Part shown: in pieces, positions 11,149-12,684 of the stretch | Layout: each line of letters starts with the position of its first letter | Position numbering within the stretch: the first letter of the stretch is position 1 | Source of the DNA: an uncultured Alphaproteobacteria bacterium | GTDB lineage: Bacteria > Pseudomonadota > Alphaproteobacteria > ATCC43930 > CGMCC-115725 | NCBI GenBank assembly: GCA_963747735.1 | Contig: CAVVGE010000009.1 | Span: 6,257 to 70,256 of the forward strand | Direction: 5' to 3' | Length of the DNA: 64,000 bases | The notes under the pieces: model-generated | The model's database searches: none | What the model was told of the DNA's origin: nothing | Seen by the model: the letters and a program-made list of their open reading frames with translations, nothing else | Translations under genes and position numbers: made by a program

Positions 11149-12684
11149 TCACGGCACCGTGAAGCGATCGTTCATCGAGGTCCAGAACTGCTGCTGCACG
11201 ACCTTGCCGCGGCGCAGGATGTCGCCGTGAAAGGCGAGCAGCACTTCGAGGACATCGCCGTGGGCCACCCCATGAAAGGTGGCGCGCGGCCGGTCAAAGC
11301 CGATAAAATGACAACCCGTCGCCTGGTTGGCCACCGTTCCCGCCGCGTCGGTGAAATAGCCGTTGAGCGGGCCGTCGGGCGGCGCCGGGCCTTCATTGCC
11401 CTGTGCGCGATGGCCATAATTCACCGCCGTTGCATCGGCGGCGTTGCCGTCTTCCTGGAAGGCGTCGTTGATCCGGCCCGCGGGTAGGTTTCCGAATTCC
11501 GCGCCGAGATCGGTGACGACGCCGCCCCGGGTGCGCCGCTTGTGACCGCGGATGAACTGCCGATATTCGTAGTCGGCGCACCCGCAATACTGTGAAAACT
11601 GGGCGTGCATCGTGTGATGGCCGGCGACCGGCCGCTCGCCCGCGGCGACCGGACCCGGCACCGCATTATCGAGGCCGACGTTGAAAGCCAGAAGGCAGTT
11701 CTCGTCGGTCATGGCCAAGCCTTCCGCCCGCGTCTCCCGGTCGAGAAAATTGAAAGTCTGCGGGCCGATCATGCCGTCCTTGTGCAGGCCGAATTCTTCC
11801 TGCAACGAGGCAACGGCCAGGATGTCGTCGTCGGTCCAGGTCCCGGTCGGCTCGGTGCCGATCAGGTCCTGCAGCTGCTTGGTTCGCGCTTCGTCATAGG
11901 TGAATTTGTTGAAACGGATCGCGGCCTGGATTTGCGCCGGGGTCAAATCCGTCTGGGCTGCCGCCGCCGGAGTGGGCGGCTCGGTGGCGAGGTCGCGCCG
12001 CACCGTGTTTCCGGGTGCCGGCCGCTGCTGGACGACGTGCGCCAATTCGTGGGCCAGCAAGAAGCGCCCGCCGGCGGCGCCGGGCGAGAATTCACCCGAC
12101 CCGAAGACGACGTCGGCGCCGATCGTGAAAGCCCGCGCGTTGAGGTCGCGCGCCAGCGCTCCCGCCTCGGCATCGGCATGCACCCGCACATCGCCAAAGT
12201 CGTGCCCAAAGCGGGGCTCGAAAAACCCTCGTTCGGAGGTCGGCAAATTCGCGCCGTTGCCGAGATTGCCGATGCGCTGCTCGAGCCCCGCCGTGATCGC
12301 GGGCGGCGGCCCCAACAGCTTACCGTCGATCTCTTCGTCGGCCCGCTTGCGGCGAACCTTCGCCTCGTCATCGGCTTGGCACGCGGCGCAGGCGCGCTGA
12401 AGCATCCCCGATGCGGCCGTCAAAGCGTGAGGCGGCTCAGGGCTCGACGCCGGCATCCGCATGACCGCTTCGGCCATCGCGTCGGCTTCGCGCTCGAGCG
12501 GGTCGGCCGCGGAGCCGACAACGAGCTTGCACTGCAATGCCGCCGGCGCGACCGCTATCCTGGAAAAGTCGTGCGCGGCAAAAGCGGGTGCCGCCGGCGC
12601 CGCCGTCTGCCGCACCGCCGCGGTGAAAGCGCCCGGCGGCAGCGCAGCGCGCTTTGTCGGCGAGACCGCAACATGGGCCTGCAT
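11149..12684 (-). CDS. eCIS cargo candidate: DUF4157 (HExxH) domain + peptidoglycan-binding-like domain + unknown C-terminal domain
   Basis: FEPRFGHDFGDVRVHADAEAGALARDLNARAFTIGADVVFGSGEF...RFLLAHELAHVVQQ is the DUF4157 signature. LQEEFGLHKDGMIGPQTFNFL is PG_binding_1-like. The last 200 aa or so are unassignable. The start was chosen at the ATG preceded by AAGGAGGG, 11 nt after the upstream stop. Confidence 0.85.
   Translation of the reverse strand: MQAHVAVSPTKRAALPPGAFTAAVRQTAAPAAPAFAAHDFSRIAVAPAALQCKLVVGSAADPLEREADAMAEAVMRMPASSPEPPHALTAASGMLQRACAACQADDEAKVRRKRADEEIDGKLLGPPPAITAGLEQRIGNLGNGANLPTSERGFFEPRFGHDFGDVRVHADAEAGALARDLNARAFTIGADVVFGSGEFSPGAAGGRFLLAHELAHVVQQRPAPGNTVRRDLATEPPTPAAAAQTDLTPAQIQAAIRFNKFTYDEARTKQLQDLIGTEPTGTWTDDDILAVASLQEEFGLHKDGMIGPQTFNFLDRETRAEGLAMTDENCLLAFNVGLDNAVPGPVAAGERPVAGHHTMHAQFSQYCGCADYEYRQFIRGHKRRTRGGVVTDLGAEFGNLPAGRINDAFQEDGNAADATAVNYGHRAQGNEGPAPPDGPLNGYFTDAAGTVANQATGCHFIGFDRPRATFHGVAHGDVLEVLLAFHGDILRRGKVVQQQFWTSMNDRFTVP

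Follow-up and report, generated by a model that had tools for sequence, protein, structure and literature searches.

What does the last gene of a contractile injection operon contribute to its particle, and on what would its product act? The question is raised by an open reading frame (ORF) in a 64,000-nucleotide stretch of contig CAVVGE010000009.1 (assembly GCA_963747735.1, positions 6,257 to 70,256) from an uncultured alphaproteobacterium; the whole stretch is called the window here, and all coordinates refer to it. The ORF closes an operon for an extracellular contractile injection system (eCIS) and had been put forward, in a preliminary description made from the sequence, as a candidate cargo gene with a C-terminal domain (CTD) that could not be placed in any family. 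Our analysis confirmed this observation. The product is very likely an eCIS cargo belonging to the DUF4157 class and, as such, a candidate eCIS-associated toxin (EAT), whereas the chances that it acts on the bacterial envelope or periplasm of its target are about even. To the explanation as a whole, an eCIS cargo serving as an envelope-directed effector by the full mechanism set out below, which we consider the best one, we assign a probability of 0.55 at most.

The candidate cargo gene and the layout of its product

The gene and the parts of its product, all on the minus strand, are the following:

11149-12684, minus strand: candidate cargo gene, complete, 511 amino acids (aa) plus TGA stop (11149-11151), terminal gene of the eCIS operon
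12690-12696, minus strand: Shine-Dalgarno sequence AAGGAGG, 5 nt 5' of the ATG, read from the sequence
12247-12684, minus strand: N-terminal leader, aa 1-146 (25% Ala, 10% Pro, 2% aromatic residues)
12451-12537, minus strand: leader motif LQCKLVVGSAADPLEREADAMAEAVMRM (aa 50-78), conserved and present in 32 of the 47 family members of full length
12019-12246, minus strand: eCIS_core (DUF4157) domain, aa 147-222 (Pfam PF13699, E 1.2e-29)
11974-11997, minus strand: junction RDLATEPP, putative N-terminal boundary of the cassette formed by the peptidoglycan-binding (PG)-like module and the CTD
11713-11952, minus strand: helical module with PG_binding_1 fold, about aa 245-324, with a DG.IGP.T motif
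11152-11712, minus strand: CTD, aa 325-511 (187 residues), modelled as all-beta, uncurated family

The ORF runs from an ATG at 12684 to a TGA at 11149. A longer form with a TTG start at 12753 is possible, but the ATG is preferred because AAGGAGG stands 5 nt upstream of it and because the orthologue in locus L009, 85-93% identical, has the same start. A chance ORF or a wrong start was ruled out by the strong Shine-Dalgarno sequence, a third-position GC content (GC3) of 0.80 and orthologues with E values down to 1e-114, homologues being present in at least five phyla. An identical protein is recorded on a Logan/ENA contig; the public sources that hold the protein leave it unnamed, and P0089, the full-length protein most closely related to it, has no label other than "DUF4157". 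As had been proposed, the gene is the last of its operon, since a convergent LuxR/GerE-type regulator gene follows after a gap of 44 nt. On the other side, the stop codon of the DUF6734 gene lies 11 nt 5' of the cargo ATG and its final base is overlapped by the Shine-Dalgarno sequence, which speaks for operon coupling of the two genes. Genes for sheath, tube, Pvc16_N cap, AAA+ ATPase, spike and baseplate J/TIGR02243 proteins lie upstream on the same strand and identify the operon as an eCIS.

The DUF4157 signature, also noted in the preliminary description, is borne out by Pfam PF13699 (eCIS_core, formerly DUF4157), which matches aa 147-222 over profile positions 2-77 of 79, the score of 102.7 bits lying above the cutoff of 22. 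The domain carries an intact HExxH motif of the zinc-binding type, HELAH, at aa 212-216 (12037-12051). The motifs quoted earlier were located at aa 159-169 (FGHDFGDVRVH), aa 209-220 (LLAHELAHVVQQ) and aa 301-314 (HKDGMIGPQTFNFL), and the C-terminal strings were found too. DUF4157 is an established marker of eCISs and frequently forms the N-terminal part of toxin fusions (PMC8213781), and the succession of leader, DUF4157 and variable C-terminus is the strongest predictor of an eCIS toxin (PMC8213781, PMC11297309). This same succession in our protein, together with neighbouring paralogues that differ in their C-termini, upholds the proposed layout of a modular N-terminal part and a variable C-terminal effector.

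Judging by its composition, the leader is probably disordered. It shows weak conservation outside short motifs, namely HDFSRIAV (aa 38-45), the motif at aa 50-78 with the consensus [IL]Q.KL.[IV]G.P.D.[YL]E.EAD..A..V[MV]R[ML], and LQRACAAC (aa 95-102, window about 12379-12402). As LQR.C..C is common to paralogous DUF4157 proteins with other C-termini, the leader motifs may serve DUF4157 cargo in general as signals for loading or processing, and by analogy with the N-terminal region of AlgoCIS cargo the leader is presumed to act as a loading signal. In AlgoCIS of Algoriphagus machipongonensis, Cgo1 and Cgo2 fill the tube lumen, as revealed by cryo-electron tomography and mass spectrometry (PMC8894135; bioRxiv 10.64898/2026.05.27.728243), and their loading requires a disordered N-terminal region while DUF4157 is dispensable (bioRxiv 10.64898/2026.05.27.728243). 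The earlier view of DUF4157 as a packaging domain therefore finds no support in AlgoCIS. With Cgo1 and Cgo2, whose N-terminal region is disordered, as that of the cargo protein probably is, the latter shares a central DUF4157 domain and a variable C-terminus, encoded within an eCIS cluster; Cgo1 has 498 aa and the cargo protein 511 aa, and an AAA+ ATPase belongs to the operon in both. The CTD of Cgo1, however, is a predicted metalloprotease, whereas the C-terminus of the cargo protein consists of a PG_binding_1-fold module and an all-beta domain, and lumen filling, seen in particles for Cgo1 and Cgo2, is a prediction for the window protein.

Downstream of DUF4157, the junction RDLATEPP corresponds to the family consensus [IV]QRDLATPPP. 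The distance from this junction to the CTD is fixed at 90-100 aa, while that from HExxH to the junction varies between 15 and 395 aa (31 of 48 members), and [IV]QRDLATPPP would thus be the boundary expected for an exchangeable cassette. In protein P0015, GHDFATVRV is joined straight to QRDLATPPP and the HExxH part of DUF4157 is deleted.

For the PG-binding-like module recognised in the preliminary description, the fold could be substantiated while the Pfam score itself stays below the cutoff: PG_binding_1 (PF01471) reaches 17.5 bits with the full protein and 20.8 bits with the isolated module, against a cutoff of 23, the match lying around HKDGMIGPQT. Among 98 relatives, 31 match PG_binding_1 at E<=1e-3 (best E 9.7e-23), and PHROG endolysin models match the middle module only. 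In the AlphaFold2 (AF2) model of aa 230-511 (predicted local distance difference test, pLDDT, 94.2; predicted template modelling score, pTM, 0.87), the module forms a helical bundle with pLDDT >90 over the helices. Foldseek aligned it with a phage PG-binding domain at probability 1.0 (root-mean-square deviation 2.1 Å over 57 columns, 28% identity) and also with wall-binding domains of other phage peptidases and lysins, the probabilities ranging from 0.97 to 1.0. The helical-bundle fold and the DG.xG..T motif are the same as in PF01471 modules of phage endolysins and wall hydrolases; there, PG_binding_1 is joined to a known catalytic domain (amidase, M15 or lysozyme), whereas here it is joined to an all-beta domain and its score is sub-threshold.

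The C-terminal domain family

Searches with the CTD as a single sequence and as a 34-sequence profile (E<=10) gave no match in Pfam, NCBIfam, PHROGs or PDB sequences; what appeared was at chance level, namely DUF1579, SWIM and HTH_92 among the curated families (34 members) and hits with E >=0.57 among the PDB sequences. An unannotated C-terminus on a DUF4157 protein is to be expected and no surprise, since 983 of the 1130 predicted DUF4157 EATs of Danov et al. 2024 likewise have no other annotated domain; 68 predicted EATs of that study possess a peptidoglycan-binding domain (PMC11297309). While a word-indexed search with the CTD found 4 relatives, 88 were found with the profile, and when 1.84 billion cluster representatives (clusters at 50% identity) were scanned exhaustively with HMMER, 362 proteins passed a threshold of E<=1e-3, of which 118 also passed E<=1e-10 and 51 passed E<=1e-30. 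The C-terminal region thus remains unplaced, as first described, with respect to curated families and solved structures, but it does belong to a family, an uncurated one of 362 clusters. In 98 longer members, the domains beside the CTD comprise eCIS_core (53), PG_binding_1 (31), TIG (3), dockerin (3), PG_binding_3 (2) and hemopexin (1), and no known domain overlies the CTD itself. The gene is a further example of a known cargo class with an undescribed CTD family, and not a new type of system.

An alignment of 182 sequences, 20-55% identical to the window CTD, revealed at least 80% conservation of C369, E373, Y374, R375, Q376, G380, P401, E411, D412, G413, Y423, G424, H425, R426, Y443, G457, C458, D464, P466, G476, F485, G487 and W501, with R375, Q376, D412, R426 and D464 being 99-100% invariant. 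R375, Q376, E411, D412, R426 and D464 are candidates for an active or ligand-binding site. Cysteines 330 and 367 occur together in 95 sequences, singly in 5 and not at all in 37 (Fisher p ~1e-27, phylogeny ignored); for cysteines 369 and 458 the corresponding numbers are 159, 5 and 18 (Fisher p ~1e-20, phylogeny ignored). This covariation suggests two disulfides, 330/367 and 369/458, which fit better than one Cys4 metal site because many sequences have lost the first pair and kept the second; a single Cys4 zinc site is disfavoured by this separate loss.

AF2 modelled the CTD alone with a pLDDT of 93.4 and a pTM of 0.88. Both independent runs, on the two-domain construct and on the CTD alone, gave an all-beta structure. 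Its five long strands each span 13-16 residues, and the EDG and YGHR motifs lie in a long loop region that is also ordered. The pattern of the strands and the kind of weak matches obtained make a beta-sandwich probable. A Foldseek search on a model of the C-terminal region, as the preliminary description had recommended, was run against 350,542 PDB chains and BFVD. Among the PDB chains nothing was found at E<=1e-3, the best E being 1.9e-3 for the two-domain model and 1.4e-2 for the CTD alone, and BFVD gave no convincing match for the CTD. The best CTD matches (template modelling score <=0.29) were generic Ig-like folds, namely the CfaE adhesin, accessory domains of glycoside hydrolase families 2 and 3 (GH2/GH3), the MspA rim, ApaG and the arrestin N-lobe. 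A match to families with a housekeeping or structural role, named in the preliminary description as counting against its proposal, was looked for in these searches and not found.

Several specific assignments were considered and found no support in the searches. The combination of PG_binding_1, an all-beta domain and a conserved His...Gly-Cys calls to mind the YkuD L,D-transpeptidases, which are characterised by a beta-sandwich and by a catalytic His/Cys with the motif SxGCxR; there was no Pfam YkuD match at E<=10 and none among the 50 listed Foldseek PDB matches per model. Because C458 covaries with C369, it is expected to be a disulfide partner rather than a free nucleophile. For a deamidase of the CNF1/BLF1 type or an ADP-ribosyltransferase (ART), no CNF1 or ART entries were among the Foldseek matches listed, and of pore formers, the aerolysin/haemolysin type having been considered, the entries Cry78Aa, Tpp80, NetF and alpha-haemolysin appeared only at Foldseek probabilities <=0.08.

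The genomic surroundings of the relatives tie the domain to eCIS loci. Eight loci from the genome collection represent Alphaproteobacteria, Betaproteobacteria, Verrucomicrobiia, Blastocatellia, Acidobacteriaceae and Draconibacterium, including one alphaproteobacterial locus whose CTD is 93% identical to that of the window. All eight encode the fusion of DUF4157, PG-like module and CTD, and eCIS structural genes adjoin it in seven; the eCIS-linked CTDs of these genomes are spread over Alpha- and Betaproteobacteria, Acidobacteriota, Verrucomicrobiota and Bacteroidota. In metagenome loci of at least 8 kb, eCIS genes stand beside the CTD gene in 16 of 17 cases. Two positions recur: the operon's 3' end after DUF6519-DUF6734 (window, L009, L016, L021), and directly after the AAA+ ATPase gene, often followed by more DUF4157 genes (L002, L012-L015, L018). 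Three CTD proteins inside eCIS loci lack DUF4157 (P0015, P0031, P0051), P0031 consisting of leader and CTD only and being encoded immediately 3' of the ATPase gene. The CTD as a universal core part of eCIS was ruled out, since none of 30 eCIS-like loci picked by their ATPase contains it; DUF4157 genes occur in 7 of these 30.

The neighbouring DUF4157 paralogues in the loci of the second type (L002, L012-L015, L018) have the same N-terminal part and different C-termini, among them a VanY D-Ala-D-Ala carboxypeptidase (E 2e-20), a phage-lysozyme-like domain (21.8 bits, slightly below the cutoff), an AMOP-like domain and unknown domains. Some relatives of the CTD reside in proteins with classical Sec signal peptides or with dockerin, TIG or hemopexin domains. 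The search for an immunity gene that had been proposed was run on the downstream ORFs of the loci and gave no conserved immunity-like ORF common to distant loci.

Locus L018 has two CTD genes (2465-3241 and 5482-7056), a minimal one with leader and CTD after the ATPase gene and one encoding DUF4157 and the PG-like module with a divergent CTD, in which the motifs GEVRQFV, EDRD, YGHR and SDFPG are found.

Proposed role and competing readings

How might such a protein work? By analogy with Cgo1 and Cgo2, the Ala/Pro-rich leader and its LQ.KL.VG...D.LE.EAD motif would steer the unfolded protein into the inner tube's lumen, aided by the AAA+ ATPase. The HExxH module of DUF4157 would have an accessory role, possibly, and speculatively, in processing at the QRDLATPPP junction. 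Contraction would then set the C-terminal cassette free in a target bacterium's envelope or periplasm, where the PG_binding_1-fold module would attach to peptidoglycan and the CTD, probably a sandwich held by two disulfides, would bind or modify an envelope component. Oxidative folding and an extracytoplasmic substrate would account for the missing immunity gene. The covarying cysteine pairs and the relatives with Sec signals, dockerin or TIG domains suggest that the CTD works outside the cytoplasm; given the PG_binding_1-fold module, the peptidoglycan-directed paralogues and the absence of an immunity-like ORF downstream, the simplest such place would be the periplasm or wall of the target.

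Peptidoglycan effectors of type VI secretion systems (T6SS), such as Tae, Tge and Tlde1, act in the periplasm and are usually accompanied by immunity genes. The proposed likeness is that a contractile system delivers a wall-directed effector harmless in the cytoplasm of the producer. There is, however, no similarity in sequence or fold, YkuD-like, papain-like and lysozyme-like folds not being among the Foldseek matches of the CTD, and no immunity genes were found downstream of CTD genes. Nearer parallels come from eCIS cargo itself. EAT14, composed of DUF4157, LysM and Transglut_prok (PMC8213781, PMC11297309), resembles the cargo protein in the order of an N-terminal DUF4157, a wall-binding middle and a C-terminal effector, but its wall-binding module is LysM, whereas that of the cargo protein has the PG_binding_1 fold and is followed by a putative effector domain from a family without a curated model. 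BDI_2459, a DUF4157 cargo of the contractile injection system of Parabacteroides distasonis, showed activity in E. coli only when tagged for the periplasm (PMC12210884). It is likewise a DUF4157 protein encoded in a contractile injection cluster, with the dependence on the periplasm that is predicted for our protein; it was reported, however, to have no disordered N-terminal region (PMC12210884), which our protein probably has.

A number of points weigh against an envelope-directed cargo. Distant CTD subfamilies are orphans in unrelated neighbourhoods, as seen for a Binatia protein with PG-like module and CTD and for two of three such planctomycete proteins (P0086, P0075; L098, L099). The disulfides are suggested by a covariation uncorrected for phylogeny, and the baseplate frameshift described below, unless it is a sequencing error, may mean that the eCIS of the window is defective. 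The PG_binding_1 match of the cargo protein is below the Pfam cutoff, and the fold also has roles unrelated to peptidoglycan, for example as the pro-domain of matrix metalloproteinases. Finally, no catalytic motif can be recognised in the CTD, and the closest of its weak structural matches are Ig-like, non-catalytic domains; its function could be binding and not catalysis.

This last point leads to the main rival, a binding module in place of an enzyme: the CTD would be a non-catalytic lectin- or adhesin-like binder that, with the PG module, targets the HExxH metallopeptidase of DUF4157 as the real effector. The all-beta model with its weak matches to the CfaE adhesin, GH2/GH3 accessory domains, ApaG and the arrestin N-lobe speaks for it, as do the association with dockerin, TIG and hemopexin in Sec-secreted proteins and the lack of a known catalytic signature in the searches of PDB sequences and with Pfam profiles. 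We nevertheless hold it to be unlikely. The occurrence of the CTD in eCIS loci without HExxH in the same protein (P0031, P0015, P0051) indicates an autonomous unit, the 99-100% invariance of its five polar residues is more typical of an active site, and the toxicity of AlgoCIS Cgo1 is independent of its metalloprotease motifs. If, on the other hand, the CTD is only a binding module, the finding is a routine one.

Two further readings move the site of action elsewhere. Most characterised eCISs have eukaryotes as targets, which in itself counts against a bacterial target, and eukaryotic cells are what the most thoroughly studied ones act on (PMC8213781). The protein might accordingly be a eukaryote-directed toxin in which the PG_binding_1-like bundle is a mere structural adaptor and the CTD has its target in or on host cells; the sub-threshold PG_binding_1 score would agree with this, and the DxD-like DSD motif of the adjacent DUF6734 protein might indicate an effector of the glycosyltransferase type. 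The peptidoglycan-directed paralogous cargo of sister loci (VanY, lysozyme-like), the covarying cysteine pairs, which argue against action in a reducing cytosol, and the distribution of the family over many phyla of soil and sediment bacteria, with nothing pointing to a host association, make this reading improbable. Least probable, in our view, is an endolysin-like factor that weakens the producer's own peptidoglycan for release of the eCIS particles and is no payload. It would fit the PG_binding_1 fold as in phage endolysins, the release of eCIS particles by lysis (PMC8213781), the failure to find an immunity gene and the VanY and lysozyme-like domains of neighbouring paralogues. Yet the protein has neither a signal peptide nor a holin partner for access to the wall, its leader and DUF4157 represent the layout of tube-lumen cargo, and the patchy CTD, absent from all 30 ATPase-selected loci, contrasts with the more uniform occurrence expected of a release function.

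Returning to the envelope-directed cargo, a bolder version of it may be put forward, which we consider doubtful. In it, the CTD would be a new family of envelope-attacking effectors with a fold not yet represented among solved structures, activated by its two disulfides in the periplasm of the target; such a periplasmic redox switch would explain how antibacterial cargo is made without immunity genes, and QRDLATPPP would mark a mobile cassette of PG-binding module and CTD swapped among eCIS cargo, Sec-secreted and orphan genes. Among the largely uncharted contents and targets of eCIS particles from soil and sediment bacteria, the CTD family offers a concrete and widespread case. The confident model, the neighbours encoding peptidoglycan enzymes and the disulfide signature lead to a testable prediction, that of a periplasmic antibacterial effector without an immunity gene. 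If true, eCISs would gain a new effector domain family and the antibacterial role of a whole eCIS lineage would gain support; the cassette with its fixed junction could also serve payload engineering.

The surrounding operon and distant relatives

The context of the cargo gene in the window is as follows:

12696-35169, minus strand: remaining eCIS operon
32524-34530, minus strand: sheath
31971-32489, minus strand: tube-like gene
29193-31211, minus strand: Pvc16_N cap, 672 aa
27262-29250, minus strand: AAA+ ATPase with winged-helix domain
26302-26985, minus strand: tube-like (CIS-tube-like) gene
24274-24780, minus strand: spike
21104-23714, minus strand: baseplate gene, Afp11/TIGR02243-like, frameshifted
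18330-21107, minus strand: baseplate gene (TIGR02243/Baseplate_J genes together 18330-23714)
16030-18333, minus strand: ORF
13623-16007, minus strand: DUF6519
12696-13601, minus strand: DUF6734 (PF20508, E 6e-54)
10316-11104, plus strand: LuxR/GerE-type response regulator, convergent, bounding the operon on its 3' side

The Afp11-like baseplate gene is broken by a frameshift near 21652-21672: of a 771-aa homologue from L002, aa 1-583 match in frame -3, with aa 590-770 following in frame -1. The break could mean that the gene is a pseudogene, or it could come from a sequencing error or a programmed shift. The Pvc16_N cap-like protein is long (672 aa) and has an additional IPT/TIG domain at aa 475-534.

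Directly 5' of the cargo gene and after DUF6519, the DUF6734 gene is also found in the other loci with the CTD gene at the operon's 3' end (L009 8100-9002, L016 8079-8981 and L021). Its product gave no match to PDB sequences and contains HIDSDAF with the DxD-like (DSD) motif, by which it might be a GT-A glycosyltransferase; a role as a further effector or as an enzyme that modifies the particle is conceivable. On the 3' side, the LuxR/GerE-type regulator shows a weak receiver-domain match and is conserved in L009 with 85% identity; GerE-domain regulators adjoining eCIS operons have been described (PMC8213781).

Some distant relatives of the CTD lie in other surroundings. On a planctomycete-like contig (L007, 1-10891 and 18391-19230), the gene of P0073, with PG-like module and CTD, is located about 1.5 kb after a VgrG-DUF6484-DUF2169-PAAR-like island, and a protein with PG_binding_1 and Peptidase_C70 is encoded 8 kb away. 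A reproducible VgrG/T6SS linkage of the planctomycete subfamily was rejected, as it was seen for P0073 and is absent for P0086 and P0075. The Binatia protein P0066, with TIG and CTD, is encoded in a cluster of about ten genes (L005/L006, about 2180-15761) together with a GerE regulator, a PLD-like protein, a faintly YkuD-like protein and several large proteins without Pfam match; this cluster may be a very divergent secretion or injection locus. In the window itself, a transposase gene of the IS1595 family (ISXO2-like; 36189-37013, minus strand) lies just upstream of the eCIS operon.

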